Shown here piece after piece: positions 1,949 to 29,397 of a DNA stretch of 32,000 nucleotides (the stretch's first letter is position 1; each line of letters opens with the position of its first letter). Below the pieces are notes generated by a model. That model worked only from the letters and a program-made list of their open reading frames with translations, searched no databases and was not told the DNA's origin. Origin of the DNA: Candidatus Electronema halotolerans (GTDB lineage: Bacteria; Desulfobacterota; Desulfobulbia; Desulfobulbales; Desulfobulbaceae); contig OW818675.1 of NCBI GenBank assembly GCA_942493095.1, positions 1,200,001-1,232,000 on the forward strand. Reading direction: 5' to 3'. A program made the translations under genes and the position numbers.

Positions 1949-3076
1949 TCACTGCTGGGGCTGCATCTCCTGCACCGCCTCTGTCGCCAAGTCGGCCACA
2001 GTTCGTTTCACTGGCTCGCCACGCTTGTATGTCACGATCTCGGTCTGATCGTTCTGCAAGCCCATGATCTGGAACATCACCTCTTTCGCTTTGACCCGGC
2101 CCAGCAGCCGGGCGGTCAGTCCGCGCACGGTTGGATTCTCGTGACCAAGCAGAGGAAAGAGCGAGTAAAACGGGATGCTGCGGACAAGATCAGGCCGGAC
2201 AGCGGCAATCTCGGTCAGCCCGTGCAAGGCAGCCTCGCGGGTGCCCTCATCACCGATGAAATTGAGCAGATGGCGGGTGAAGGCCCCGAAAATGTCGGTG
2301 CGGGCGGCAATAATCGCGCCAATGGCCTCAACCATGCCCCAAGGCATGGAGGCAGAATCTGAGCAGGCTTCAAAGAGGCGATGGAGCATGTCCGCTATCG
2401 GGCCGGGTTCGCGGGTGGCCAGCCGAGCACCAATCTGCCCGATCAGCCAGGCGATCTTATAGCGTTGTTCCGGCGCAGGCTCATAGAGCAGCTTCTGGAG
2501 AAAACGGAGGGTGCGCCTGTCGTCAAAGGTCAAATCAACCAGCGCATCGACATCACCGGCCTCAACAAGCTGCTTGACCAAGGGCCTGCTGGCCTTTTGC
2601 CGGACGCGCTTGGGATCGCGGGCAGGCTCCACCGGCGGCGGAGCAGCCTCTGCCCCTGTCACAGCTTGCGCCTCTGCCTCTTTTTTCTTGGCAAACCGGG
2701 CTGCCACTTCAGCAATGTCCTTGTGCAGACGGACAAAGTAGAGAATGCCGCGCACGGCCCTGCCGTCCAGATTCCGCTTGGGACAGACCTTATGGGTGAC
2801 ATCGTCGTAATCCTCAACAATGCCAGTCAAGTAATCATCTTCCGGGATCAGCTCCCAGGCCAAGTCCCATTCGTCGCCGCAGGCAAAAACAAGGCACTCA
2901 ACCATCGCCGCGCCAATGTTGTGGCCAGTGGCATCGCTGACATAGACGGCCCCGCACTCGCAGCGGCCCGCAGGAAATTCCTTCATGGTCCGCTGCACAG
3001 TCTCGGAAGGCCGCCCCACTTCCATGCCGCAAAAGGGACACCAAGGCCGCCGGTTCTCCTGTTTTCCCGCCGCCAT
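1949..3076 (-). CDS. Cys-rich (zinc-ribbon-like) N-terminal domain plus HEAT/armadillo-like repeat protein; resembles the family named after Desulfovibrio DVU0298 (recalled, unverified)
   Basis: 375-aa ORF with ATG at 3076. The N-terminus is WCPFCGMEV...GRCECGAVYVSD. The C-terminal half has HEAT-like helices (RYKIAWLIGQIGARL..., PWGMVEAIGAIIAAR, REAALHGLTEIAAVRPDL, NPTVRGLTARLLGRV). Its start lies 2 bp after the stop of the upstream TPR gene, so the two appear to form an operon. Confidence 0.75.
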   Translation of the reverse strand: MAAGKQENRRPWCPFCGMEVGRPSETVQRTMKEFPAGRCECGAVYVSDATGHNIGAAMVECLVFACGDEWDLAWELIPEDDYLTGIVEDYDDVTHKVCPKRNLDGRAVRGILYFVRLHKDIAEVAARFAKKKEAEAQAVTGAEAAPPPVEPARDPKRVRQKASRPLVKQLVEAGDVDALVDLTFDDRRTLRFLQKLLYEPAPEQRYKIAWLIGQIGARLATREPGPIADMLHRLFEACSDSASMPWGMVEAIGAIIAARTDIFGAFTRHLLNFIGDEGTREAALHGLTEIAAVRPDLVRSIPFYSLFPLLGHENPTVRGLTARLLGRVKAKEVMFQIMGLQNDQTEIVTYKRGEPVKRTVADLATEAVQEMQPQQ

Positions 3077-3078
3077 TG

Positions 3079-3717
3079 TTACTGCTCCAGCTTGGCGTTC
3101 AATCCCTGGACAAAGCGCGGATCAATCGAATAGCCCAGCTCCTTGGCCCGTTCTATCTGCCGCTGTGACTCCTTGTAGTCACCGTTGAAATACAGGGCCA
3201 CGGCCAGATTGTTGCGGGCCATGCCGCTGTCCGGCTCCAGTTCAATCGCCTTGCGGGCCGACTCGACCGCCCGGTCATCCTGCTCCAGCATGGTGCAGGC
3301 CGAGGTCAGGTTGAGCCAAGCTGTGAGCAGATACGGATCAATCTGAATCGCCTTTTCATAGCACTCCAAGGCGGCCAAGGCATCGCCCTGCTGCTGGCGG
3401 ATCAGGCCGATATTGACATGAGCCTCCGCCATCTTTGGCGTGACCGCCAAGGCCTTTTCGTTCAACTCCAAGGCCCGCTCCACCTCGCCTTGGTCAAAAT
3501 AAATTGCGCCAAGATTGATGTAGCTCTCCACCGAGTGGTCATCCAGCTTGATGGCCTGCTCCAGCTCGCGGATGGCCTCGTCCGTGCGTCCTGCTTGGCG
3601 GTAGAGCAGGCCAAGGGTGTGGTGGGCAATGATATTATTGGGATGCTCCTTGCAGATTTTCTCCTGCTCGGCAATCACTGCTGTCAGCGGAATTTCGCTT
3701 TGTTTTGCGTGAGACAT
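3079..3717 (-). CDS. Tetratricopeptide (TPR) repeat protein
   Basis: ATG at 3717 is preceded by GGAAGAAG. Five or six canonical 34-aa TPR units are present (AHHTLGLLYRQAGRTDEAIRELEQAIKLDD, SYINLGAIYFDQGEVERALELNEKALAVTP, AHVNIGLIRQQQGDALAALECYEKAIQIDP ...). The longer ORF-track start at 3858 adds non-protein-like sequence. Confidence 0.85.
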   Translation of the reverse strand: MSHAKQSEIPLTAVIAEQEKICKEHPNNIIAHHTLGLLYRQAGRTDEAIRELEQAIKLDDHSVESYINLGAIYFDQGEVERALELNEKALAVTPKMAEAHVNIGLIRQQQGDALAALECYEKAIQIDPYLLTAWLNLTSACTMLEQDDRAVESARKAIELEPDSGMARNNLAVALYFNGDYKESQRQIERAKELGYSIDPRFVQGLNAKLEQ

Positions 3718-3897
3718 CGGGTCTTCTTCCTTGCGGCAAAAATGAACGCCGCCTTGCGCGGCGGGATGGTTTCCGGGAACTATAGTCACAAACGGAAATG
3801 AGGCAAGGAATAATAGCAGAGACTGCGTTTTTCCGCAAGAGAAAGGGCGCAAGATCAATCCCTTGAATTGGCGGAATTATGCTGCTGCCGAACGGCA

Positions 3898-3932
3898 TGA
3901 AAAAAGCCCGGCGGATGACTCCGACGGGCTTT
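3898..3932 (-). terminator. Rho-independent terminator downstream of tRNA-Asn
   Basis: The minus strand reads AAAGCCCG-T-CGGA-GTCA-TCCG-C-CGGGCTTTTTTC. This is a GC-rich interrupted stem of about 12 bp followed by a T6 run. It sits between the tRNA-Asn 3' end (3966) and the TPR operon start. Confidence 0.55.
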
Positions 3933-3965
3933 CTATAACAAAACGCTTGGAAGCGGTGATGAACT

Positions 3966-4041
<76 letters not shown>

Positions 4042-4076
4042 ACAGCCTGCTGCCCTGCGGCAGCATTGACAGCCCA

Positions 4077-4105
4077 TATTTAGCATGCCCGCGAAAAAGA
4101 GTCAA
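4077..4105 (-). promoter_or_regulatory. Sigma70-type promoter for tRNA-Asn
   Basis: The minus strand has TTGACT (4105-4100), a 17-nt spacer and TAAATA (4082-4077). An A/T-rich UP-like tract lies upstream, and the element is about 30 nt before the mature tRNA 5' end. Confidence 0.45.
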
Positions 4106-4123
4106 GCAAAAAAATAAAACATC

Positions 4124-4152
4124 TTGCGCGGACCGAAAAAAAACGATACAAT
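4124..4152 (+). promoter_or_regulatory. Sigma70-type promoter for tRNA-Pro
   Basis: TTGCGC (4124-4129), a 17-nt spacer and TACAAT (4147-4152). An A-rich tract lies upstream, and the element is about 20 nt before the mature tRNA 5' end. Confidence 0.45.
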
Positions 4153-4172
4153 GCTGCACCCGCCGTATTTGT

Positions 4173-4250
4173 CGGGGCGTAGCGCAGCCTGGTTAGCGCG
4201 CCTGCCTTGGGAGCAGGAGGTCGCAGGTTCGAATCCTGCCGCCCCGACCA
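4173..4250 (+). tRNA. tRNA-Pro (anticodon TGG), CCA encoded
   Basis: Sequence is CGGGGCGTAGCGCAGCCTGGTTAGCGCGCCTGCCTTGGGAGCAGGAGGTCGCAGGTTCGAATCCTGCCGCCCCGACCA. The acceptor stem is CGGGGCG/CGCCCCG, the anticodon stem-loop is CCTGC-CT-TGG-GA-GCAGG, and the T-arm is GGTTCGAATCC. Confidence 0.93.
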
Positions 4251-4404
4251 TCTTCATCATTTCCTTTTGATCGGCCAGCACTGCTGCAACGTCACTTTGA
4301 CGGGAAGCTGGGACTGCCGCTTTCTCTCGCATTCCTGCACCCCGAAAAGCTGAACTCATCAGCCAAAGGTCTTCTTTCTGGTATATTGTCATCCGGGGCC
4401 TGCC

Positions 4405-4424
4405 GGGCACGGCGCGCCGTGCCC
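4405..4424. terminator. Perfect 20-bp GC-rich palindrome between convergent transcription units; possible bidirectional (U-tract-less) terminator
   Basis: GGGCACGGCGCGCCGTGCCC is self-complementary. It lies between tRNA-Pro (+) and the 3' end of the zinc-ribbon gene (-). There is no flanking T-run, so confidence is low. Confidence 0.3.
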
Positions 4425-4473
4425 GCACTCCGCCATCACAGCCCGGCCACTTTGCCGATCAGCTCGCCCACAA

Positions 4474-5127
4474 TTACTCCAGCTCCTTGCCGCAGTGCTT
4501 GCAGAGTTGGGCGCGAGCCTTGATCAGCTCCATGCAGTATGGGCATTCGCGCATGAAATGGCTGGCCAATATTTGTTTGATGGACATGTTGACCGCGTGC
4601 TCCAAACTGGGATCACTGAACTTGTGATTGCGCAGCGGCTCAATGCAGGCCAGATCGTCAAGCTGGGCCAAGAGCGCGGCAGCCTGCCGCCTGACCTCGA
4701 TGGCGGCGGCATTGTCGGTCAGCAGATGGAGTGCCGGAGCAAGGTCCTTGCGGGCCACGCAGTCGCAAAGCCCGGCAGCAGCCTCCTTCTCGCCCTGGTA
4801 ACGGCTGTTCTGCCGCTGCAGGGCCTCAACATCAACGATGCTGCCGGTGAATGCCTGTTTGCTGGCCACCATCATATTGTAGTTTTCTTTGCTGCCCGGC
4901 AGCTCCATGTGGCGATAGGAACCCACCCGGCCATACTGCTGCTCAATAAAATTCCAGCCCTTGACAAAGAGCGGGCAGTCGTCATTCAGACAGATGAAAA
5001 GAAATTCAGATCCCCAGCCCAGCCCGTCGCCGACATGCATGGGCGGCGCATGACAAAGGGTCAGCTTGGTGCCGCAGTGGGGGCAGAGATGTTCTTCGTT
5101 CAAATAGGCAAGCACTCGTTCCAGCAT
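4474..5127 (-). CDS. Uncharacterised protein with N- and C-terminal zinc-ribbon-like Cys clusters and a central HEAT-like segment
   Basis: 217-aa ORF. The N-terminal cluster is CPHCGTKLTLCH...CLNDDCPLF, and the C-terminal cluster is CPYCMELIKARAQLCKHCGKEL. The central segment DNAAAIEVRRQAAALLAQLDDLACIEPL is HEAT-like. Confidence 0.7.
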   Translation of the reverse strand: MLERVLAYLNEEHLCPHCGTKLTLCHAPPMHVGDGLGWGSEFLFICLNDDCPLFVKGWNFIEQQYGRVGSYRHMELPGSKENYNMMVASKQAFTGSIVDVEALQRQNSRYQGEKEAAAGLCDCVARKDLAPALHLLTDNAAAIEVRRQAAALLAQLDDLACIEPLRNHKFSDPSLEHAVNMSIKQILASHFMRECPYCMELIKARAQLCKHCGKELE

Positions 5128-12492: not shown

Positions 12493-12524
12493 GCAGTCTT
12501 GGCAATGAGGCTGCGGCTTTTTTT
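12493..12524 (+). terminator. Possible terminator after lysA
   Basis: Short imperfect stem GCAGTC-N10-GGCTGC followed by GGC and a T7 run (12518-12524). Confidence 0.35.
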
Positions 12525-12549
12525 CAATCCCTGCAACCACGAGGTGACG

Positions 12550-13660
12550 ATGAAAAAAGCAATCAAACTGAACGCAGTGCTTGCAGCGGCACTCTCTGTT
12601 CCCAGCACCAGCGTAGCTGCCAATTTGGAACTGCTTATGGCCGGGCCGTGGGCTTCTGGCCGCCAGCCTTATTATCCCATTGTCGATACCAAGCAGAGCA
12701 CCTGCTTTAACGATTTGGTATCTATTGCCTGCCCTGCGCAGACGACAGGCGACTTCTACGGCCAAGATTCTCAGCATGACGGGCTGGCTCCAAGCTTCAC
12801 GGGTAATGGCAACGGCACTGTCACAGATAATCGCACCGGATTGATGTGGCAGCAGGATCCGGGCGACAAGAAGACTCGTGATCAAGCCTTGGCTGAAATC
12901 GGCTCCTTTGCTTTGGCAGGTTACACAGACTGGCGGCTGCCTACGATCAAGGAGCTGTATTCGCTGATTCAGTTCAACGGCAAGGACGCAAGCGGCTGCG
13001 ATGATGAAGGCACTACTTGCACTGCTGACGATTACACGCCCTTCATTGACACCACGTATTTCACCTTTCAATATGGGGGGAACGTGTATGGCGACCGGAT
13101 CATTGACGCGCAGTATCTGTCCAGCAATTTGGTGGAAGGCGGCACGAGCAACAATGCCGAGTCAGCCTTTGGCGTGAACTTTGCCGATGGCCGCATCAAG
13201 GGTTATGAACTTGAACCAAAGGGCACACCTAAGACTTTTTTTGTCATGTATGTGCGTGACATCTCAAGCGACAAAAAGTACGGCATCAACAGCTTCAAGG
13301 ACACTGGCGACGGTACGGTGATTGACAGTGCGAGCGGACTGCAATGGATGCAGGCGGACAGCGGCGCAGGCAAGAACTGGCAGGAGGCTCTGGCGTACTG
13401 CGAAAACTTGAGTTTGGCAGATCATACAGACTGGCGGCTGCCTAATGCCAAAGAACTGCACAGCATTGTTGACTACAGCAATGCACCGGACACAAACGGC
13501 AAGCCCGCCATTGACACGGACTATTTCAACTCCACTTCCATCAAAAACGAGAACGGAGTTGATGACTGGCCCTTTTACTGGACCAGCACCACCCTTGAAA
13601 CGTGGAATAACAAAGGGGACAAGGCGGTTTTTGTCGCTTTTGGCCGGGCCTTGGGGTATA
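12550..13660 (+). pseudogene. 5' part (370 codons) of a secreted DUF1566 (Lcl C-terminal-like) repeat protein gene, interrupted by IS630
   Basis: ATG 12550 follows GAGGTGA. The signal peptide is MKKAIKLNAVLAAALSVPSTSVAA. There are two DUF1566-type modules (TDNRTGLMWQQD...GYTDWRLPTIKELYSL and IDSASGLQWMQAD...WQEALAYCENLSLADHTDWRLPNAKELHSI). The reading frame runs straight into the IS at 13661. Confidence 0.85.
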
Positions 13661-13746
13661 TAGCGGTTTCAGGTTGTATGGTTATCAGAAAAAGATTAAA
13701 CTTGACTTGTCTGTTTTTTCCATTTTTTTACACACGGAGGTCTGCC

Positions 13747-14115
13747 ATGATTTATTCTATTGATTTCAGAAAGAAAGTCTTGTCTGTTTATGAAAAACAG
13801 AAATCATTGAGAAGAACTGCAGATTTGCTTGACGTTTCCTATAAATTTGTTCAAAGTCTTGTAAAAAGATGGAAGACTGAGGGGACGCTTGAGCCGAAGC
13901 CTCATAAAGGCGGAAATCCTCCGAAAATCAAGGAAGTTCATATGCCTTTTCTGACCAGCATGATTGATGACGAGAACGATCTTACGCTTGAAGAGATGTG
14001 TGATCGCTTATACGAGAAATTCAATTTAAAAATAGCACCTTCCACGCTGTGCGAAACTCTCGCCAGACTGAAAATCAGCCGGAAAAAAAACTTTCCGCGA
14101 TCCGGCGGCGTATAA
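13747..14115 (+). CDS. IS630-family transposase, N-terminal HTH part (orfA)
   Basis: MIYSIDFRKKVLSVYEKQKSLRRTADLLDVSYKFVQSLVKRWKTEGTLEPKPHKGGNPPK...LTLEEMCDRLYEKFNLKIAPSTLCETLARLKISRKK. The frame ends shortly after an A8 run (14083-14090). Confidence 0.85.
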   Translation: MIYSIDFRKKVLSVYEKQKSLRRTADLLDVSYKFVQSLVKRWKTEGTLEPKPHKGGNPPKIKEVHMPFLTSMIDDENDLTLEEMCDRLYEKFNLKIAPSTLCETLARLKISRKKNFPRSGGV

Positions 14116-14680
14116 AGAGGAAAATATAGCAAAGACAGTTAATTACCTTGCAGGCCTGCTCGAGGCTGACAAAAAGAATTTCATCTTTATTGATGAGACA
14201 GGATGCTGTTTGAACATGTCGAGAAAATTTGCAAGATCAAGAAAAGGAACAAGAGCTTTTTCAAAAAGACCTTCAGGTAAAGGGAAAAGAATAAGCATGA
14301 TAGGAGCTGTAAAGTTTGGAAAAATATTGAAGTGCATGAAATTTAAAGGCACCATGACAGGAGATGTCTTTTATTTCTATATAAAAAATTATCTTTTGAA
14401 ATATCTTGACAGCAGCAAGACAGTCGTTCTTGACAATGCCAGTCCTCATAAAAACAAAGAAGCTCTCGCTTTGATCAGAAGTACAGGAGCGAAGATCATT
14501 TTCCTCCCTCCTTATCGTCCTGAACTGAACCCTATTGAATACTGCTGGTCAGTAATGAAAAACACTATAAGAAAATTGAAGCCGAGAACAGAGCGTGAGC
14601 TGATGGAAGCTTATGATATATCTCTGAAAACGGTTAAGTCAAAATCAATCAAATCGTTTTTCCGTCATTGCTGGGTTTGA
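14091..14680 (+). CDS. IS630-family transposase, DDE catalytic part (orfB, +1 frame relative to orfA)
   Basis: The +1 frame reads ...KKTFRDPAAYKEENIAKTVNYLAGLLEADKKNFIFIDETGCCLNMSRKFARSRKGTRAF...VVLDNASPHKNKEA...FLPPYRPELNPIEYCWSVMK. The D (FIDETG), D (LDNASPH) and E (NPIEYCW) motifs are all present. Removing one A from the A8 run would fuse orfA and orfB. Confidence 0.85.
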
Positions 14681-17702: not shown

Positions 17703-17731
17703 TTGTCGGCGCAGGTAAAATTTCTTATACT
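17703..17731 (+). promoter_or_regulatory. Candidate sigma70 promoter for the E2-like membrane protein gene
   Basis: TTGTCG (17703-17708), a 17-nt spacer and TATACT (17726-17731). The predicted transcription start is at about 17738, which would make ATG 17743 nearly leaderless. Confidence 0.4.
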
Positions 17732-17814
17732 ATTTTCACAGCATGTCACAGCCTCTCCGCTGTCGGGCTGCCTTGCGTCCGATTGGCGGGATACTTCTGC
17801 CTTTTCAGAACAAC

Positions 17815-20517
17815 ATGGCTTCACAAAAAGATCAGCGGAACAGTGAGTTCGATGAATTGCAGCAGACTCTCGCCCAGCATTCGCGCATCAGGATAACCCA
17901 GACTGAGGGCGAGCCGCCAGACTGCTATGAAATCGAATACAATCTGACCGGGCTGGTCAAAGCTGCGGACGGCAGCATCAGCAAGGCCTCCAAGCACCTC
18001 ATGCTGCTCACCCTGCCGTTTGGCTATCCTCACTTCCCGCCTGCCGTCAAGCCGCTCACCCCGATTTTCCATCCAGACATGGACCCGGACGCAGTCCGCA
18101 TCTCCTCCTACTGGCAGAACAGCCCCTCGTTGGCCAAGCTCGTTCTTCATCTTGGCGACATGATCTGCGGCAAAGAGTATGAGCTGGAGGAGCCGTTCAA
18201 TCAGGAGGCGGCAGACTGGTATGCCGCTCATGCTAAGGAGCTGCCCTGCGACACTGCTGCCGGAACAGGCGGTGCTGCGGATGATCTTGATCTTGACCTC
18301 GGCCTTGCTGATCTTGATGAGCCTGCGCATGCGCAGGAGATGGATATTTCCTCAGCCTTGGCTCCGGCCTTGGAAATTGAGGACATGACCGACTTGGAGC
18401 CTGTTGAAACAGACAGCGGCGCGGAACTGTCCTTTGAGCTGGAATCGCCGCAGCCGGTGGATGATCTTGCCGGTTTGACTGGCCAAGAAGAGGAGCATGC
18501 CAGTCAGGAAGAGGCGGAGGAAGAGGATTTCGGCTTGGAGCTTGAGCTTGACCTCGCGCCTGAGCCTGAACCGGCAGTGGAACAGCCGCCGCAGGACATT
18601 GGGCCGAAGCTGGAGGAAATCCGAGCTCATATACGCAGAAAAGAGATGGAGATTGCGGCCCGGCTGCTGGCCAGACTGCCTGCGCTCCCGGAGGTGGAGG
18701 ACCTTAGACTGCGGGTTCGGACGGCATTGGCGGAACGGGACGAGCTGCTGGCAGAACTGAAAGTTTTTGAGGATGACGACAACTTTGACGAAGCCAAGAA
18801 AGTTTTCAAGAAGATCAAGGCGGTTGCGGCTGACACCCCGGATCTGGCCGAAATAGGCCGTCGGCTGGAGCAGTCGCAAAACATGCTGGATGCCTTTTCC
18901 ATGCCCTCGCAGAAGGAAGCGGCGGCGGAAGATGAATTTGCTGCTGAGGAAGAGAGCATTCCGTCTCTGAAAAAGAAAAAAGAGAAAAGAACTGTCAAGG
19001 AGGCTCCGCCGCGCAAGGAAAGGCAGAAGCAGGCTGCGCCCAAGGAAAAAAAAGAAATTTCCACGGTCAAAAGGCAGATTGTCCGCACGGTGTACCGGGA
19101 GGTGCCAGTGGCTCCTTTTGCCATAGCCGCCGGGGTTGCAGCAGTGATTGTGGTCGTTGGCCTGGTTTACACCAGAGACACCAACAATCTGCTCAATGCC
19201 CAGCTGGCATGGCAGGACGCGCAGCAGCTTTTCCGGCAGCGTGAATGTCAGAAGGCAGATGCCAAAGCCAATGCCGCGCTTGCCATCTTGCAGACAGTAC
19301 TCACGCCTTTGCCTGCAAAAGGCAGCATGAGGAAAGAAATTGCCGAACTGACAGCAAGTGCGGAGTATCAGCTCTGCAAGGATGGAAAAGGACTCTACAA
19401 TGGAACGCCAATACTATTGCCTGAGTTGAAAAAACGGGTGGAGCTTGACAAGCGGCTTGCAGCAATAGAACATGCCTTGGAACAAGGCAATATCAGTCTA
19501 TCTGTTGAACTGCTTGAGAAGGCAGAAAAATATGCTATAGAAAATGGGCTGCGGCTGCCGGACAATTTTGAAGCATTGAAAAAACGTGTTTTTGAAACGC
19601 TTCTGAAAGATGCCCTCAATTGTGTTGAAGAGGCGCGGAAGCTGAAAGACTGGGAGACTGTGGAGAAATGCACCCGGCAAGGCTTGCAGGCGGCAAAGGA
19701 GCTGGGGGATAATGAGGTTGAAAGAAAATTCAAAGAAATTTTGGCTGAATCTCTTTTCAACAGTGAACTGCATCGATTCAAACAACTGTTTGCCGGGGCG
19801 CACGGACAATGGCAGCAGTGTCTTGAACAGCTCAAAACACTGGAAGCATTGCTCCAGAAGAATTCAGATGCAGCCACTCCTGAGAAAAAACTGGAGCTGG
19901 AGCAGCTCAAGGCTAACTGTCAGTTTTATCAATTTCTTTTTCTTGCCAACGAAGCCTACAGCAGCAAGGGAGACAGCGATGCGGCAGTAAGCCATTATGA
20001 ACAGGCCTTGAGCCTGCTCAACAGCAAGCAGCACCTGTTCACGGCTGCGGAACAGGCGACTGCCGAACAAATCAGAAGCACCATTCAGCGGATCAGAATC
20101 AGTGATTTGTGGAGCAAAGCCGCCGCAGAGGAGAAGGATGGCGATCTTTCTTCAGCCTTGAAGCATTACAGGGGAATAAAAGAGATGCTGCGGAGGCTTG
20201 ACCTGAATGACAAAGACGCAGACCTGCAACTCTTTGACAAGGAGATTGATTCAAGAATCAGCCGCTTGCAGCAGGTGTTGCGAGGACAGCGGAACAATGA
20301 CTGGCTGCAGAGGAATTACAAGAAAATTTTCTCAGATGCCTATCCATCGGCCCGAACTGAACTTCTTCACAGTCCGCAGCTTGACTTCATCAATATGATC
20401 AATGGGCAGGAGCACTACAAGGTCAGTTGCCGCGAGGGGCAGATGTACCGTTTTGAACTGCATTATCTGCACAACCCGGCGACTGGTCAGTGGACACCCT
20501 GCCCAAATTGTCAATGA
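17815..20517 (+). CDS. Large membrane protein: N-terminal E2/UEV-like (UBC-fold, no catalytic Cys) domain, acidic linker, coiled-coil, Lys-rich segment, one TM helix, and a roughly 440-aa helical (TPR-like) C-terminal region
   Basis: The E2 core pattern is HLMLLTLPFGYPHFPPAVKPLTPIFHPDMDPDAVRISSYWQNSPSLAKLVLHLGDMICG...EPFNQEAADWY. The acidic tract (D/E/L-rich) spans about 18250-18600. The TM helix VAPFAIAAGVAAVIVVVGLVY (about 19108-19173) is preceded by KKKKEKRTVKEAPPRKERQKQAAPKEKK. An alternative start at ATG 17743 would add 24 Arg/Cys-rich residues. Confidence 0.8.
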   Translation: MASQKDQRNSEFDELQQTLAQHSRIRITQTEGEPPDCYEIEYNLTGLVKAADGSISKASKHLMLLTLPFGYPHFPPAVKPLTPIFHPDMDPDAVRISSYWQNSPSLAKLVLHLGDMICGKEYELEEPFNQEAADWYAAHAKELPCDTAAGTGGAADDLDLDLGLADLDEPAHAQEMDISSALAPALEIEDMTDLEPVETDSGAELSFELESPQPVDDLAGLTGQEEEHASQEEAEEEDFGLELELDLAPEPEPAVEQPPQDIGPKLEEIRAHIRRKEMEIAARLLARLPALPEVEDLRLRVRTALAERDELLAELKVFEDDDNFDEAKKVFKKIKAVAADTPDLAEIGRRLEQSQNMLDAFSMPSQKEAAAEDEFAAEEESIPSLKKKKEKRTVKEAPPRKERQKQAAPKEKKEISTVKRQIVRTVYREVPVAPFAIAAGVAAVIVVVGLVYTRDTNNLLNAQLAWQDAQQLFRQRECQKADAKANAALAILQTVLTPLPAKGSMRKEIAELTASAEYQLCKDGKGLYNGTPILLPELKKRVELDKRLAAIEHALEQGNISLSVELLEKAEKYAIENGLRLPDNFEALKKRVFETLLKDALNCVEEARKLKDWETVEKCTRQGLQAAKELGDNEVERKFKEILAESLFNSELHRFKQLFAGAHGQWQQCLEQLKTLEALLQKNSDAATPEKKLELEQLKANCQFYQFLFLANEAYSSKGDSDAAVSHYEQALSLLNSKQHLFTAAEQATAEQIRSTIQRIRISDLWSKAAAEEKDGDLSSALKHYRGIKEMLRRLDLNDKDADLQLFDKEIDSRISRLQQVLRGQRNNDWLQRNYKKIFSDAYPSARTELLHSPQLDFINMINGQEHYKVSCREGQMYRFELHYLHNPATGQWTPCPNCQ

Positions 20518-20759
20518 TGGTGGTGATGCCCGCTGTTGTCGTGCCCTGGCGCGGCCAGCGGGCCGCCAGCCCGCTCCAAGGCCTCTTCCAGAGAGCGGTG
20601 CGCTGACTGAAGTGCTTCTGAGGCCCGGCGCAGCAGACCGGCAAGTTCCGGCGTTTCCGCAGTCAAGGTTTCGGCCCAGCGGAAGAATTCCGCGCCATGT
20701 CCCTGATTGTGCTCAATCCAATGCGGCAGCAGCACCCGCAGTTTATCCACATCCTTCAT
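20511..20759 (-). CDS. Small helical protein with a C-terminal His5 tail (putative metal / Ni-binding accessory protein)
   Basis: ATG at 20759 (the ORF-track start 20765 is TTG), with AAGGA 8 nt upstream. The protein is MKDVDKLRVLLPHWIEHNQGHGAEFFRWAE...GHDNSGHHHHH*. Its 3' end overlaps the convergent E2-like gene by 7 bp. Confidence 0.6.
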   Translation of the reverse strand: MKDVDKLRVLLPHWIEHNQGHGAEFFRWAETLTAETPELAGLLRRASEALQSAHRSLEEALERAGGPLAAPGHDNSGHHHHH

Positions 20760-20788
20760 TGTCAAATCCTTTGTGCAGTTTTCTTTTG

Positions 20789-20995
20789 TTATGATGCCGA
20801 TTGCCTGACCGCCAGCACCACTGAGCCGTCAAGAAAATCAATATTTCTGATCCATGCGTCAGGCACAGTCAAAGGCTCTTCAAAATAGGTGCTGAGAATC
20901 ACGCCCTCCGGGGTCACATTGACGCTGGTGACAGATTCCATCACGGTTTTCCTGCTGCCATCCTGCTGCTCCACGATTGCTTTGAGCTGACACAT
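20789..20995 (-). CDS. cooT: CooT-family-like nickel-binding protein
   Basis: ATG 20995 is preceded by GAGGAGAG and gives a 68-aa protein starting Met-Cys (MCQLKAIVEQQDGSRKTVMESVTSVNVTPEGVILSTYFEEPLTVPDAWIRNIDFLDGSVVLA). Its length, the Cys2 residue and the beta-strand pattern match Rhodospirillum CooT (recalled). Confidence 0.65.
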   Translation of the reverse strand: MCQLKAIVEQQDGSRKTVMESVTSVNVTPEGVILSTYFEEPLTVPDAWIRNIDFLDGSVVLAVRQSAS

Positions 20996-21015
20996 TGCTG
21001 CTCTCTCCTCACTGT

Positions 21016-21996
21016 TCAAATAAGAAAACGGAATTCCCCCTTGCCGAGCAGGTCATGCAGATGGAGGATGCCCAGCACAGCGCCTGCCTCATCGGTCACT
21101 GCCAAGACAGTGATGTCCTTGCTCTGCATCAGACTGAGGGCATCAGCCGCCATCATGTCCGGGCTGATGCGCACCGGTGTTTTGGTCATTACCGCTGCCG
21201 TGCCGCCGCCCGCCTGTAGCTGCCTGCTGATCAGGTGCCGCCGCAAGTCGCCGTCCGTGATGATGCCGGACAGCTTCTGCTCAGAAGAGACAACCAGCAC
21301 GGCCCCCAGATTCTTGCGGTTCAGTTCAGCAACCGCCTCCGCCAAGCTGGCTTCCTTCCTGATCAACGGCATCTTGTCGCCAGTGAGCATGACCTCCCGC
21401 ACTTCCACCTTTAAGCGTTCGCCCAAACTGCCGCCCGGATGATTGCGGCGGAAATCTTCAGCCCGGAAGCGGTGCCGCTTGAGCAGGGCCACGGCCAAGG
21501 CATCGCCAAGAGCGAGCGTGGCTGTGGTCGAGGCGGTCGGAGCCAGCCCCAGCGGGCAGGCTTCTTTGGGCACTGCAACCTTGAGCAGCACCTTGGCCTG
21601 CTCGGCCAAGGAAGAAGTCGGATTGCCGGTCATGAGGATCACGGGCAGCGACATGGCCTTGAGGCTGGAGAGCAGCCGGTGCAGCTCCGTGGTCTCACCG
21701 GAATAGGAGATTGCCAGCACCACATCCTTTGGCCCGACCATGCCAAGGTCGCCGTGCATGGCTTCGACCGGGTGAAGAAACAAGGACGGGGTGCCGGTGG
21801 AGTTGAAGGTGGCGGCCATTTTCTGTCCCACCAGCCCGGATTTGCCAATGCCGGTGATGATCAGGCGGTTGGGCGGACAGGCCATGATCAAATCAACGGC
21901 TTGGACAAACTCCTGGCCCAAGGCATCACGGACCGCATGAATGCCTTCGGCCTCAATGGTCAACACCTCGCGGGCCTGCTCAATGGCTGTCATCAT
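21016..21996 (-). CDS. kdsD: KpsF/GutQ-family arabinose-5-phosphate isomerase (SIS domain + CBS pair)
   Basis: SIS motifs are LIITGIGKSGLVGQKMAATFNSTGTPSLFLHP.EA.HGDLGMV and AISYSGETTEL. The C-terminal tandem CBS region is (VMLTGDKMPLI...LGAVLVV...LSGIITDGDLRR; ISPDMMAADAL...ITVLAVTD...VLGILHLHDLL). Its ATG overlaps the upstream stop (ATGA). Confidence 0.9.
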   Translation of the reverse strand: MMTAIEQAREVLTIEAEGIHAVRDALGQEFVQAVDLIMACPPNRLIITGIGKSGLVGQKMAATFNSTGTPSLFLHPVEAMHGDLGMVGPKDVVLAISYSGETTELHRLLSSLKAMSLPVILMTGNPTSSLAEQAKVLLKVAVPKEACPLGLAPTASTTATLALGDALAVALLKRHRFRAEDFRRNHPGGSLGERLKVEVREVMLTGDKMPLIRKEASLAEAVAELNRKNLGAVLVVSSEQKLSGIITDGDLRRHLISRQLQAGGGTAAVMTKTPVRISPDMMAADALSLMQSKDITVLAVTDEAGAVLGILHLHDLLGKGEFRFLI

Positions 21997-23016: not shown

Positions 23017-24639
23017 TCAAGTTGCAGGCAGCCAGCGCTGCAAGGTGGCAGTGAGCTGGTCCTTGTTGACAGGTTTGGTCAGATAGTCGTCCATGCCTGC
23101 GGCAAAGCATTTTTCCTGATCACCGGTCATGGCATTGGCGGTCATGGCAATGATCAGCCGGTGCCTGCCTTGCAAGCGCTGGCGCAACTGCTCCAGCAGA
23201 CCGGTCTCTATTTTGCCTGCCGCCTCCGAGTCCAAGTCCCCGTTCTCCTCGCAGGCGCGGATGATCCGGGTCAGGCTGTAGCCGTCCAAACGCGGCATCT
23301 GCACATCAGAAAGAATCAGATCAAAGCTGTCATCCTCCAGCAGCATCTGGAGGGCGGCCAAGCCGTCAAAGGCCTCTGTCACCTGATGCTCGAACTTTTC
23401 CAGCACCACCCGGAGCAGGAAGCGGTTGGCTGGATTGTCCTCCACCAGCAGGACGCGCAGCGGCTGGAGTGCGGCAGGATTTGGCATGGCATGCACGGCT
23501 GCTTTTGGCATCTCAGCAGTCCGGCCAAAGATGGCGGTGAAAGTGAAGGTTGATCCCTTGCCCTGCTCACTCTGCGCACTGATGTCGCCGTCCATCAGCT
23601 CGCAGAGCTGACGGCAGATGGCCAGGCCCAGCCCTGTGCCGCCGAATTTGCGCGACACCGAGCTGTCCTCCTGCGAAAAGGCGCTGAAAATCGTGCTGAT
23701 TTTATCAGCCCTGATGCCGATGCCCCGGTCAATGACTGAAACTTGCAGGGTGACAGTTTCCGGCCCGGCATCGGCCATGCTGACCTGAATGCGGATCGGC
23801 CCCTGCTGGGAGAATTTGATTGCATTGCTGAGTAAATTGAGGATGATCTGGCGGAAGCGGAGACTGTCGCCCTCCACTGCCTTGGGCACATCCTCGGCAA
23901 TGTCCATGAGGATGGCCAGCCCTTTTTCCTTGGAAAGAAAGGAAACCGTGCGGACTGCCGCCTCCACTGCCTCAGCCAGAAGAAAAGGATGTTCATCCAG
24001 CTCCAGCTGTCCGGCTTCAATTTTGGAGAAATCAAGAATGTCGTTGATCAGAGAAAGCAGGGAATCAGCCGACAGCTTGACGGTTTCAAGGTATTTGCGC
24101 TGCTGCGAGTCAGCCGCCTTTTCCAAGGCCAGATCGGTCATGCCGATGATCGCGCTCATGGGCGTGCGGATCTCATGGCTCATATTGGCGAGAAAGATCG
24201 ACTTGGACTGCGAGGCAGCCTCGGCCTTGAGGCGCGCATCTTGGAGCTGCTGCCGCATCCGCAGCAGTTCAATCTGGGTGCTGATCCGGGCGCGGACAAT
24301 CTCCAGCTTGAACGGTTTGGTGATGAAATCGACCGCCCCTGCGTCCAGCCCTTGCAGCTCGTCGCTTTCCTTGTCCAAGGCGCTGAGGAAGATGACCGGA
24401 ATATGCCTGGTGCGGCTGTCTGCTTTCAGACTGCGGCAGACCTCGTAGCCGTCCATGCCCGGCATCATGATGTCCAGCAGGATCAAATCAGGCTGAGGCG
24501 CCTGCGCGGCCAGCTCCAGGCCCTGCCTGCCGCCGGTGGCCACTCTGACAGTGTACTCCGGCGACATGGCCTCGCCAAGAAGCATCAAATTGTCAATGAT
24601 GTCATCAATGATGAGGAGGATGGGTTTTCTGTCGCTCAT
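23017..24639 (-). CDS. Hybrid sensor histidine kinase / response regulator (REC-HisKA-HATPase_c-REC) with no recognisable sensory input domain other than REC
   Basis: REC1 is ILLIIDDIIDN...LILLDIMMPGMDGYEVC...PVIFLSAL. The H-box is FLANMSHEIRTPMSAIIGM. The N, G1 and G2 boxes are LLSNAIKFS, DRGIGI and GGTGLGLAICRQL. REC2 is VLLVEDNPANR...LILSDVQMPRLDGY...IIAMTANAM...DDYLTKPV. Confidence 0.9.
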   Translation of the reverse strand: MSDRKPILLIIDDIIDNLMLLGEAMSPEYTVRVATGGRQGLELAAQAPQPDLILLDIMMPGMDGYEVCRSLKADSRTRHIPVIFLSALDKESDELQGLDAGAVDFITKPFKLEIVRARISTQIELLRMRQQLQDARLKAEAASQSKSIFLANMSHEIRTPMSAIIGMTDLALEKAADSQQRKYLETVKLSADSLLSLINDILDFSKIEAGQLELDEHPFLLAEAVEAAVRTVSFLSKEKGLAILMDIAEDVPKAVEGDSLRFRQIILNLLSNAIKFSQQGPIRIQVSMADAGPETVTLQVSVIDRGIGIRADKISTIFSAFSQEDSSVSRKFGGTGLGLAICRQLCELMDGDISAQSEQGKGSTFTFTAIFGRTAEMPKAAVHAMPNPAALQPLRVLLVEDNPANRFLLRVVLEKFEHQVTEAFDGLAALQMLLEDDSFDLILSDVQMPRLDGYSLTRIIRACEENGDLDSEAAGKIETGLLEQLRQRLQGRHRLIIAMTANAMTGDQEKCFAAGMDDYLTKPVNKDQLTATLQRWLPAT

Positions 24640-26598: not shown

Positions 26599-27486
26599 GG
26601 TGATGGTGAACTGTGAGTGATCAATTAAACAAAAGATTATTATTATAATCTTGAATGAACCTCCAGACAGATGCAGTTAAATTTTCGATGCTTCTCGAAA
26701 ATGAAATGGTCTTTCTGACAAGTGCAGACAATCTTTGTCTGAATGTCAAATTGAGCCTTTCGATATGACTTGTTTTTCCGCTTCCTTTGCTGACAATTCT
26801 ATGCCTTTCAGCTGGAAACACGCTCGAATAAGCGGCGAGTCCATCCGTAAAAAATATTCCGTTCTTTTTGCAATCTTCAGAAAGGGAGTCCCACAAGGCG
26901 GCTGCTCCTGCATTATCTCTTTTTCCAACATGATATCCGACAATAAGCTTTGTTCTTCTCTCGACAGCAAGCCATATCCAAATATCATTTTCCTTGTCAC
27001 CAACGAAAGTCCACATTTCATCGGCTTCGATGAAGATTTTTCCGTTGCGGGACATATTGAAAGCCTCTTTTTTGACTACATTTCGTTTTTTTTTAACATA
27101 TTCCTGAAGCCATCTTTTTGAGATGGAAACGGCTCTCGCAATCCCAGCCAAGGAGATTCTTTCAACAAGAAGCTTATCAACTATGCGCCATTCAGCATCA
27201 GATATTGTTTTGTTCTGAGGATTCTCAACGAATTGACGTGAGCAGTCCTTACATAAAAATTTCTTTTTCCCATTCGCATTGGAGCCATTTTTCACAATGA
27301 CTGATGAACCACATCTTGGGCATTGCACAGCTTTCTTCTCCATGTTTGTTTTTTTCATAATGACGGCTTGACATGCGCATCCGACGAAGAGCCGATGGGA
27401 CAGAGAGCATCCCTTGCCGCCAGTATATTATATTTTCCAGCAATTTCAACATATTTTCAACCCATCACTCACGATTCACCATTACC
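26599..27486 (-). mobile_element. IS1-family insertion sequence (888 bp), single fused transposase ORF
   Basis: The terminal IRs are GGTGATGGTGAACTGTGAGTGAT (26599-26621) and the reverse complement of 27464-27486, GGTAATGGTGAATCGTGAGTGAT (20/23 identical). They start with GGTGATG/GGTAATG as in E. coli IS1. The element is flanked by the 8-bp direct repeat GAAACTGT. Confidence 0.9.
26621..27358 (-). CDS. IS1-family transposase (InsA zinc-finger/HTH part fused in frame to the InsB DDE part)
   Basis: CPRCGSSVIVKNGSNANGKKKFLCKDCSRQF gives the zinc finger and ISLAGIARAVSISKRWLQEYV gives the HTH. Catalytic-part motifs are EADEMWTFVGDKENDIWIWLAVERRT, FFTDGLAAY and SHIERLNLTFRQRLSALVRKTISFSRS. Confidence 0.9.
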   Translation of the reverse strand: MKKTNMEKKAVQCPRCGSSVIVKNGSNANGKKKFLCKDCSRQFVENPQNKTISDAEWRIVDKLLVERISLAGIARAVSISKRWLQEYVKKKRNVVKKEAFNMSRNGKIFIEADEMWTFVGDKENDIWIWLAVERRTKLIVGYHVGKRDNAGAAALWDSLSEDCKKNGIFFTDGLAAYSSVFPAERHRIVSKGSGKTSHIERLNLTFRQRLSALVRKTISFSRSIENLTASVWRFIQDYNNNLLFN

Positions 27487-28578: not shown

Positions 28579-29397
28579 TCATACCTTCAGTGAAGGCTGT
28601 TCATGACAACGTCCCGCTAGTTCGGCCAACTCGGCAGCAGAAAGCCCTGATGCCTCAGCGACCAGCTCCGGCGCAATGCCCTGCCGCAGCAGCCTTGCCG
28701 CAATGAGCCGCGCTGCCGCAACTTGCCCTGCCTCAAATTCGTTCTTCCGCAGCTCCTCCTGATGATGCTCCTCAATCATCCGGGCGCGCTCCTCCGGGGA
28801 GAACTGGCTGCGCTGGATGGCGGCGAAGAGCTTCTGGATCGCGCTCTGCTGGTACAGGCTCTCGTCCACCTCCTCGTCAAGGGTGTCGTTGATGGCCCGC
28901 AGCCAGGAGCGGCACGGCTCCGGCGTGTTCTCGTCCGCATATTTCGGGCAGAGATAGATCACCTTGTGCGGAATTTCCTGCAGCGGCCTGCCTGCAAGGT
29001 CATGCGGATCAAAATCCGTCACCGCGATGTCGCACTGATGGCGGTCGCCGGAGGTGAGCACGACCACGGTATAGACAGCCAGCGGCGGGCGGTAGTTGTG
29101 CGAGCTGGCGATTTGCTCCAGCAGGGCCGCGCAGTGATAGTACAGGAAGCGGTCGTAATGATCCGAGGTGCGGGCGTGCTGAATGTCAATGATCAGCCGG
29201 TGCTGCGTGTCCTCGGCAAAGAGATCGAAGCGCGGCTTGATATAGCCGACAGGCGGATCAAATTCCTTTTCCGTCTCCACGACATCGACCGTCACTGGCA
29301 GGCCGATGACATCCTGCGCAAAGGCAGTGAATATCTCAGGATCACAGAACGCCTTCTTGAACACGACCCCGTATTTCAACGATGCGACTTTTTTCAT
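28579..29397 (-). CDS. PD-(D/E)XK nuclease family protein (PDDEXK_2 / Rpn-like 'putative transposase' family)
   Basis: N-terminus SLKYGVVFKKAFCDPEIFTAFAQDVIG. Nuclease-core candidates are RFDLFAED...RLIIDIQHA...YDRFLYYHCA (D...D/E-x-Q/K layout). The helical C-terminal tail is (AAARLIAARLLRQGIAPELVAEASGLSAAELAEL). Its ATG overlaps the upstream stop (ATGA at 29397-29394). Confidence 0.75.
   Translation of the reverse strand: MKKVASLKYGVVFKKAFCDPEIFTAFAQDVIGLPVTVDVVETEKEFDPPVGYIKPRFDLFAEDTQHRLIIDIQHARTSDHYDRFLYYHCAALLEQIASSHNYRPPLAVYTVVVLTSGDRHQCDIAVTDFDPHDLAGRPLQEIPHKVIYLCPKYADENTPEPCRSWLRAINDTLDEEVDESLYQQSAIQKLFAAIQRSQFSPEERARMIEEHHQEELRKNEFEAGQVAAARLIAARLLRQGIAPELVAEASGLSAAELAELAGRCHEQPSLKV

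Follow-up and report, generated by a model that had tools for sequence, protein, structure and literature searches.

A UBC-fold domain with arginine at the catalytic cysteine position in a predicted membrane-spanning core protein of the Desulfobulbales

We analyzed a 32,000-nucleotide stretch of the genome of the cable bacterium Candidatus Electronema halotolerans (contig OW818675.1, positions 1,200,001 to 1,232,000 of the forward strand; hereafter the window). An open reading frame (ORF) on its plus strand, called at 17743..20517, encodes a large protein with an N-terminal domain of the ubiquitin-conjugating (UBC) fold, in which arginine occupies the position of the catalytic cysteine. On balance, and by analogy with eukaryotic ubiquitin E2 variant (UEV) proteins, we favor the interpretation that this protein is a bitopic inner-membrane scaffold or transducer, in which the domain related to ubiquitin-conjugating enzymes (E2s) would be a cytoplasmic, non-catalytic pseudo-E2 binding module. 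Most homologues begin with the residues MASQ, matching ATG 17815, and a 24-residue N-terminal extension is found only in the closest relatives. ATG 17815 is thus the likely start, yielding a protein of 900 residues, and residue numbers throughout are counted from it. The alternative in-frame ATG 17743 would give the 924-residue annotated form, which is 100% identical to CAK8716118.1 ('hypothetical protein', Candidatus Electronema halotolerans).

An earlier reading, made from the sequence only, had proposed that the N terminus is E2/UEV-like, and profile and structure searches bear this out. The N-terminal 170 residues are matched by the Pfam family UQ_con (PF00179) with 31.2 bits (curated cut-off 27, E = 1.9e-7, residues 40-141), and the full-length protein with 27.5 bits against the same cut-off. 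No UEV (PF05743), RWD (PF05773) or Prok-E2 match was obtained for these 170 residues in Pfam at E ≤ 10; the sole other family listed was RsbRD_N, which is not significant (E = 0.23), and a search of NCBIfam gave no meaningful match. In the PDB, phmmer found UBE2C, Ubc12 and UBE2D (best E = 3.9e-6). We built an AlphaFold2 model of residues 1-152 on a 26-sequence alignment and obtained a mean predicted local distance difference test score (pLDDT) of 90.4 and a predicted template modelling score (pTM) of 0.85. The model contains an N-terminal helix, a beta-meander, a loop region and two more helices, and it is shorter at its C terminus than a canonical E2, with only two helices following the loop region. 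Foldseek returned 270 matches in the PDB at E ≤ 1e-3, the best 50 of which are all canonical E2s (UBE2D, UBE2N, UBE2K and Rad6; probability 1.0, TM-scores 0.55-0.68). Both the profile and the predicted fold therefore confirm membership in the UBC superfamily, and the resemblance is far beyond chance.

The canonical active site of this domain is altered. It had been noted from the sequence that the HPN triad of E2s reads HPD here and that Arg takes the place of the active-site Cys, and the coordinates given for both are correct (Table 1). In our alignments, Arg95 is superimposed on the Cys of Desulfocapsaceae and Planctomycete homologues, and relative to UBE2D2 and UBE2C it is located in the gapped segment of the active-site loop. 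The window protein hence has neither the Cys nor the HPN Asn of a catalytic E2. With Cys replaced by Arg and the HPN Asn by Asp in the Desulfobulbaceae, no thioester with a ubiquitin-like protein (Ubl) would be possible at the canonical site. The domain is nonetheless the best-conserved segment of the protein: among 61 homologues of the Arg-bearing clade, mean identity to the query is 72% in the E2 core (residues 61-136) versus 27% in the C-terminal solenoid described below, and the corresponding values across clades are 53% and 19%. This indicates that the Cys-less domain is under the strongest constraint in the protein. Invariant positions in a 62-sequence alignment include P68-F-G-Y-P-H-F74, P76, F85-H-P87, D90-P91, R95, W100, Q130, A132 and W135, with D88 and D92 nearly invariant.

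We then compared the catalytic position across the family, using 86 loci (the window and 85 others). It is occupied by Arg in 59 loci of the Desulfobulbaceae type, the window included, by Cys in 23 loci of the Desulfocapsaceae type, by Ser in two, one of them from Desulfopila aestuarii, and by Lys in two of the Desulfurivibrionaceae type; for the 25 loci with Cys or Ser (23 with Cys), the label Desulfocapsaceae-type is our own assignment. All 86 loci have HPD rather than the HPN found in the Planctomycete outgroup. A second Cys at position 78 (PPsCKP) is retained in the Cys, Ser and Lys forms, while nearly all Arg forms have Val, Ala or Ile there. Alignment of 460 E2 domains to one profile gave the states V/A/I-D-R at positions 78, 88 and 95 in 184 domains, C-N-C (the Planctomycete type) in 137 and C-D-C in 93; the rest carry S, K, H, A, Q, Y, F, N, G, L, P or D at position 95. 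On a neighbor-joining tree rooted with the Cys-bearing C-N-C outgroup, Fitch parsimony places Cys at the root and requires at least 21 changes at this position, a number that is approximate for a tree of about 150 columns. Here, Cys gives way to R, K, S, A, H, Q, N, F, Y and others, with the architecture and the other motifs unchanged, and one large Arg clade comprises 146 sequences. Repeated independent loss of the Cys is clear. The replacement of the catalytic Cys, noted in the initial reading, holds for the Arg-bearing Desulfobulbaceae but is lineage-specific, as the Desulfocapsaceae orthologues keep their Cys.

The genes expected of a conjugation pathway are not found nearby. Among the ORFs tested across the window, none encodes a ubiquitin-activating enzyme (E1, ThiF), JAB, Ubl or RING protein, in agreement with the earlier claim that no E1, JAB or ubiquitin-like gene lies within at least 10 kb. 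Extending the neighborhood survey to the homologues gave the same result: no such gene is located within 10 kb in any of the 86 loci, Cys-bearing ones included. The family itself is widespread within its order. A word-indexed search retrieved 99 homologues, nearly all full length, the named ones coming only from Ca. Electronema, Ca. Electrothrix, Desulfobulbus and Desulfobulbaceae. When the E2 domain was searched exhaustively with phmmer over 1.84 billion cluster representatives, 897 proteins matched at E ≤ 1e-3 and 487 of them at E ≤ 1e-10; a scan of one genome per GTDB species located relatives in 271 genomes. The taxonomy was taken from the best 80 of these 271 genome loci, nearly all of which are labelled Desulfobulbales or, more broadly, Thermodesulfobacteriota, with the families Desulfobulbaceae, Desulfocapsaceae (Desulfocapsa, Desulfofustis, Desulfopila) and Desulfurivibrionaceae; cluster look-ups add Desulfomarina and Desulforhopalus. 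Several of the 99 homologues carry the automatic name 'ubiquitin-conjugating enzyme E2', so the similarity to E2s is not itself new. As far as we found, the pseudo-enzyme status and the family-level picture are, and the automatic name is probably wrong for the Desulfobulbaceae proteins. Among the phmmer matches, a protein of 3173 residues (P0239) showed 24 matched stretches to query residues 22-79. We rejected it as a spurious relative: it is a eukaryotic pentatricopeptide-repeat protein with a low-complexity PFPFSFPFFPP repeat.

We next considered how the E2-like domain is embedded in the full-length protein, for which an AlphaFold2 model was calculated from the 62-sequence alignment (mean pLDDT 79, pTM 0.45). 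The domain is followed by the acidic linker and, further on, the Lys-rich stretch that had been recognized from the sequence. The acidic linker (residues 151-258) is 33% Asp/Glu without a single Lys or Arg, giving a net charge of -36. Its net charge is negative in 36 of 37 aligned sequences (+1 in the remaining one), and its length ranges from 12 to 269 residues. In place of the coiled-coil proposed between the two linkers, the model has a compact helical domain, which shows a mean identity of 43% in the Arg clade and has no significant family match. The Lys/Arg-rich linker leads into a single transmembrane helix. This helix and the positive charge on its N-terminal side, predicted in the sequence-only reading as one N-in helix, are conserved in nearly all full-length homologues, and the protein has no N-terminal signal peptide. 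Together, the missing signal peptide and the N-side positive charge place the E2-like domain in the cytoplasm and the last ~450 residues in the periplasm, as far as can be predicted.

The predicted periplasmic region was initially described as helical repeats, and the model indeed shows an all-helical solenoid. Its best Pfam tetratricopeptide-repeat (TPR) match is a single sub-threshold repeat at residues 714-734 (18.2 bits versus a cut-off of 25.7), and TPR_2 or TPR_11 matches are present in some homologues. Foldseek with the full-length model gave weak matches to the TPR domains of LGN and KLC (E ~4e-4, TM-score <0.25), and phmmer of residues 256-900 against the PDB matched nothing but designed helical-repeat and consensus TPR proteins. 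With designed repeats and weak generic TPR matches only, the region is not assignable to a specific family, and residues 460-842 are best called a TPR-like alpha-solenoid. The proposed Cys-containing end module survives in part: the model has a four-strand beta module (strands 851-862, 865-874, 878-887 and 892-895), and its Cys872 (20428-20430) is kept in 61 of 62 sequences. Conservation does not extend to the terminal CPNC, and we therefore rejected this motif as a metal or redox module.

Table 1. Coordinates of the E2-like gene, its predicted domains and the related or neighboring features (window positions unless another sequence is named)
Feature	Location	Strand	Evidence
Promoter match, sigma-70-like, TTGTCG-17-TATACT, 5' of the gene	17703..17731	+	Consensus scan only, 9/12 matches; weak evidence
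Coding sequence, E2-like/transmembrane/TPR-like protein, 900 residues plus stop	17815..20517	+	ORF, homologue starts
UBC-fold (E2-like) domain, residues 1-150, predicted cytoplasmic	17815..18264	+	UQ_con, AlphaFold2, Foldseek, conservation
Val78; second conserved Cys (PPsCKP) here in Cys-bearing relatives	18046..18048	+	Alignments, state table
H86-P87-D88, HPN counterpart with Asn replaced by Asp	18070..18078	+	Alignments
Arg95 at the catalytic-Cys position	18097..18099	+	Alignments
Acidic disordered linker, residues 151-258	18265..18588	+	pLDDT <50; sequence composition
Compact helical domain, residues 262-361, predicted cytoplasmic	18598..18897	+	Five helices, pLDDT >90
Lys/Arg-rich disordered juxtamembrane linker, residues 363-431	18901..19107	+	pLDDT <50, 28% Lys/Arg
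Single transmembrane helix, residues 432-454, predicted N-in/C-out	19108..19176	+	Hydropathy peak 2.59
TPR-like alpha-solenoid, residues 460-842, predicted periplasmic	19192..20340	+	All-helical, pLDDT ~90
Four-strand beta module, residues 851-895, predicted periplasmic	20365..20499	+	Full-length AlphaFold2 model
DUF8180-like small protein, His-rich tail (…GHDNSGHHHHH)	20511-20765	-	
CooT nickel-chaperone homologue	20789-21019	-	
A. giovannonii ubiquitin-type operon	CP042997.1, locus L086:885-9198		UQ_con gene near the operon's end

UEV and RWD domains are E2-fold domains without a catalytic Cys that are used in non-covalent binding. A thioester at the canonical site appears impossible in the window protein, yet the domain is the most constrained part of the protein and residue 95 is free to differ between lineages; this combination points to a pseudo-enzyme that works by binding. 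The pseudo-E2 domain would bind a cytoplasmic partner non-covalently through the conserved face around the former active site, which carries the motifs LPFGYPHFPP, FHPDxDPDAxRI and FNQEAADW. The flexible acidic and basic linkers, together with the small helical domain, may tether it to the transmembrane helix, which in turn would connect it with a TPR-like receptor and a beta module that bind a partner in the periplasm. Several points weigh against this interpretation. The binding role is deduced by analogy with UEV and RWD domains, and the N-in/C-out topology is a prediction from only hydropathy and the positive-inside rule. The pTM of the full-length model means that the individual domains are reliable and their mutual arrangement is not. 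The number of independent Cys losses is, as stated, approximate, and retention of Cys in the 23 Desulfocapsaceae-type loci means that the ancestor may have been catalytic and that function may differ by clade.

A more far-reaching version of the scaffold interpretation, which we regard as possible and put forward tentatively, is that the Desulfobulbales, cable bacteria included, have taken a ubiquitin-system E2 into their core physiology, as an E1-independent transmembrane signalling or scaffold device that couples cytoplasmic recognition to a periplasmic TPR-like receptor. If so, the target of the pseudo-E2 would be a specific cytoplasmic protein, perhaps one that carries a beta-grasp domain or a C-terminal tail, the membrane protein would be a bacterial invention parallel to the eukaryotic UEV adaptors, and the exchange of Cys for Arg, Lys or Ser between families would trace the conversion of an E2 to a pseudo-enzyme.

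Three other explanations were weighed against a non-catalytic binding module. The domain could still serve in Ubl conjugation. As a UEV-type cofactor it might assist a real E2/E1/Ubl system whose genes lie elsewhere in the genome; alternatively, in the Cys-bearing orthologues, it might be a genuine membrane-anchored E2. The Arg, Lys and Ser forms would then be regulatory variants. Known UEVs do act together with active E2s, the closest outgroup is a real operon E2 accompanied by Ubl, E1, JAB and RING genes, and the Cys and the second Cys are both retained in 93 HPD-type sequences and in the 23 Desulfocapsaceae loci. There is also a bacterial precedent in the inactive E2/RWD-like domains of polyUbl operons with JAB and E1 (PMC1779556). 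We nevertheless consider continued conjugation unlikely: the E1, JAB, Ubl and RING genes are missing within 10 kb even from the Cys-bearing loci, HPD has replaced HPN across the order, and no second E2 paralogue was found among the 80 loci. In addition, independent replacements of the Cys are numerous and occur within the Cys-bearing clade too, which argues against thioester chemistry as the conserved function.

The extreme conservation of the old active-site region, with H86, P87, D90, P91 and R95 invariant and D88 and D92 almost invariant, could instead reflect a new enzymatic activity that relies on another nucleophile, such as a different Cys, or on a metal-binding acidic HPDxDPD loop; a core identity of 72% is also more typical of enzymes than of adaptors. 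However, residue 95 varies by clade (R, C, K, S and others), so that no single catalytic residue can be assigned there. The domain has just one other common Cys, C118; it is replaced by Ser in 10 of 62 sequences and reads Asn or Ser across clades, and this lack of conservation led us to rule it out as an alternative nucleophile. Neither Pfam nor NCBIfam gave a cofactor-binding family match, and a neo-enzyme appears improbable to us. We find it hard to believe, finally, that the E2 resemblance is a functionless relic and that the transmembrane helix and the periplasmic TPR-like domain are the working parts. While the loss of the catalytic residues and the variable linker length (12-269 residues) would be in line with such decay, no other segment of the protein is as conserved as the E2 core, whether clades are taken singly or compared with each other, and the domain is kept in all 86 loci, with relatives in 271 species genomes.

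The sequence-only reading had likened the domain to eukaryotic E2s; the UQ_con match stands, and the origin now appears to lie in a bacterial E2 lineage rather than in eukaryotes. The nearest relatives outside the family are proteins of ~210-560 residues with a canonical HPN, the Cys and Zn ribbons. They match the query domain with E-values of 1e-24 to 1e-28 and 36-39% identity, compared to only ~30 bits for eukaryotic E2s. When one of these outgroup proteins served as the query, 3842 relatives were retrieved, the named ones being from Planctomycetota (Aquisphaera giovannonii, Isosphaeraceae). In A. giovannonii, the E2 gene belongs to a complete ubiquitin-type operon (Table 1) in which a YukD-like Ubl-DUF4190 fusion is followed by ThiF, JAB, FHA, Zn-ribbon, two Prok-RING_1, UQ_con and DUF2752 genes; one of the two Prok-RING_1 proteins is fused to trypsin, and several components of the operon carry membrane domains. 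The operon is not universal, since a second Planctomycete contig retains only the trypsin-domain neighbor. In one protein of metagenomic origin (P0099), HPN and Cys occur together with a transmembrane helix and TPRs, and the 7.7-kb contig that encodes it contains no E1.

Outside the family, the closest relatives by sequence are thus Planctomycete-type E2s, such as the A. giovannonii protein of ~240 residues with a Zn ribbon. They have the same shortened active-site loop and arrangement of motifs as the window domain, and several of them are likewise fused to transmembrane segments or TPRs. In contrast, the Planctomycete-type E2s have HPN, the Cys and the second Cys where the window protein has HPD and Arg, and in A. 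giovannonii the gene is located in a Ubl-E1-JAB-RING operon that none of the 86 Desulfobulbales loci has. The transmembrane helix and the predicted 450-residue periplasmic region further set the window protein apart. Judged by these sequence comparisons, the E2-like domain probably descends from a bacterial ubiquitin-type E2 rather than from a eukaryotic one. In the most economical history that we can propose, a bacterial ubiquitin-type E2 would have been fused to a transmembrane helix and a TPR-like region and uncoupled from its operon, HPN would have changed to HPD in the ancestor of the Desulfobulbales, and the Cys would then have been lost repeatedly, with Arg becoming fixed in the Desulfobulbaceae.

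We compared the protein to described E2-like systems. With UEV proteins (Mms2/Uev1, Tsg101) and RWD domains it shares a UBC-type fold without the Cys, and we propose a functional analogy with them. It differs in having no match to their Pfam models at E ≤ 10 and in that its best 50 Foldseek matches are catalytic E2s, not UEVs. The window domain also keeps H-P-(D) and the E2-type flanking motifs, and it is bacterial, membrane-tethered and apparently of independent origin from a bacterial E2. Among described domains, the closest precedent is the inactive E2/RWD-like one found in bacterial polyUbl operons, likewise a bacterial UBC-like fold without a conserved Cys. It occurs in small proteins encoded between the poly-Ubl and JAB+E1 genes, and its resemblance to E2s is remote, with profile E-values of ~0.01 (Iyer, Burroughs and Aravind 2006; PMC1779556). 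The window protein, in contrast, scores above the UQ_con cut-off, is a 900-residue membrane protein and has no Ubl, E1 or JAB neighbors. CBASS Cap2, Bil, Bub and Prok-E2 proteins are bacterial E2-like folds as well, and the window domain matches none of their models; neither the query nor a Cys-bearing orthologue nor the Planctomycete E2 was matched by the PADLOC defence models. The E2s of CBASS Cap2, Bil and Bub systems keep the catalytic Cys and are encoded beside E1 and JAB genes, and the window gene differs from these defence E2s in that it lies in a core-genome synteny shared throughout the order rather than in a defence island. A layout similar to that of the window protein is known from YfgM and CcmI/CycH, bitopic or few-pass inner-membrane proteins with periplasmic TPR domains, but there is no sequence or significant structural match to them, and none of them has a cytoplasmic UBC-fold domain.

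A literature search on cable bacteria, on Desulfobulbaceae or Desulfobulbus together with ubiquitin, on prokaryotic E2s and on cable-bacteria genomes retrieved nothing on this protein. To our knowledge, the bacterial E2-like proteins described to date come from Ubl/E1/JAB operons or defence systems. The initial impression that the architecture falls outside described systems is thus upheld by the model searches and the literature searched: as far as we found, the combination of a membrane anchor, a periplasmic TPR-like domain, no nearby E1 and an order-wide core gene is undescribed. E2-fold pseudo-enzymes of the UEV and RWD type are central adaptors in eukaryotes. Here, a UQ_con-matching domain, predicted to be anchored in the membrane, is part of a vertically inherited core gene of a sulfur-cycling order that includes the cable bacteria, apart from any nearby conjugation machinery. 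This would surprise specialists in ubiquitin evolution, although it resolves no long-standing question. The Cys-bearing and Cys-less orthologues form a natural series in which the transition from E2 to pseudo-enzyme can be studied, and as a conserved, uncharacterised envelope protein the family is a candidate for order-specific biology.

The status of a core gene follows from the gene neighborhood. In the window, a divergent yciO/Sua5-like gene lies on the 5' side, and the genes on the 3' side are convergent: a DUF8180-like His-rich protein, CooT, KdsD (SIS+CBS), a zinc alcohol dehydrogenase and a hybrid histidine kinase. The remainder of the window contains housekeeping genes and insertion sequence (IS) fragments. 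We found the same neighbors on Pfam-annotated contigs of Electronema VV, Electrothrix scaldis and another Desulfobulbaceae genome. ORF clustering over the 86 loci revealed an order-wide synteny, with SecDF, a CxxCxxCC protein, a HAD hydrolase and a divergent PATAN/DUF4388 gene on the 5' side, and DUF8180, CooT, KdsD, alcohol dehydrogenase, LipB, DsrD and DsrBA on the 3' side; in the Cys clade, KdsD is followed by MetK and AhcY. Flanked by a divergent gene upstream and convergent genes downstream, the E2-like gene is transcribed alone, and a lone gene within such a synteny indicates a vertically inherited core gene. The earlier term 'orphan' is therefore apt with respect to E1, JAB and Ubl neighbors, but the gene is not a one-off: it is an order-wide syntenic core gene of the Desulfobulbales. 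A functional link through the neighbors was considered and rejected, as the gene is solitary and the conserved neighbors are unrelated housekeeping genes.

The divergent PATAN/DUF4388 protein (~224 residues, PF14332, E = 6e-19) is found upstream in 56 loci, for example at L048:9097-9774 on the minus strand. In cable bacteria the yciO/Sua5-like gene is located in its place, and tblastn detected no PATAN homologue anywhere in the window. Immediately downstream of the E2-like gene, the DUF8180-like and CooT genes make up a conserved pair that could serve in metal (Ni) handling. The 3' ends of the DUF8180-like and E2-like genes overlap by 7 nucleotides, tail to tail. This arrangement recurs with 7 nucleotides in Electronema VV and 6 nucleotides in Electrothrix scaldis and hints at transcriptional interference. 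The hybrid histidine kinase (HisKA, HATPase_c and three receiver-domain matches; 23017-24639, minus strand) lies three genes downstream and outside the synteny conserved in other genera.

Elsewhere in the window, mobile-element remnants are present at 12499-14680, 26621-27358 and 28579-29397. They include an ORF in which Lcl_C domains are joined to IS630-type helix-turn-helix domains, followed by a DDE_3 fragment, as well as an IS1-family transposase and a PD-(D/E)XK transposase-like gene. The remnants coincide with low G+C content (0.43-0.47 at 13-15 kb and 0.39-0.42 at 26-28 kb). A run of genes on the minus strand at 1949-5127 encodes a HEAT-repeat protein, a strongly TPR-positive protein of 259 residues and a Zn-ribbon protein of 217 residues. 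It lies 13 kb from the E2-like gene and is unrelated to it by position, and the repeat and Zn-ribbon themes recur in the E2-like family and its relatives.

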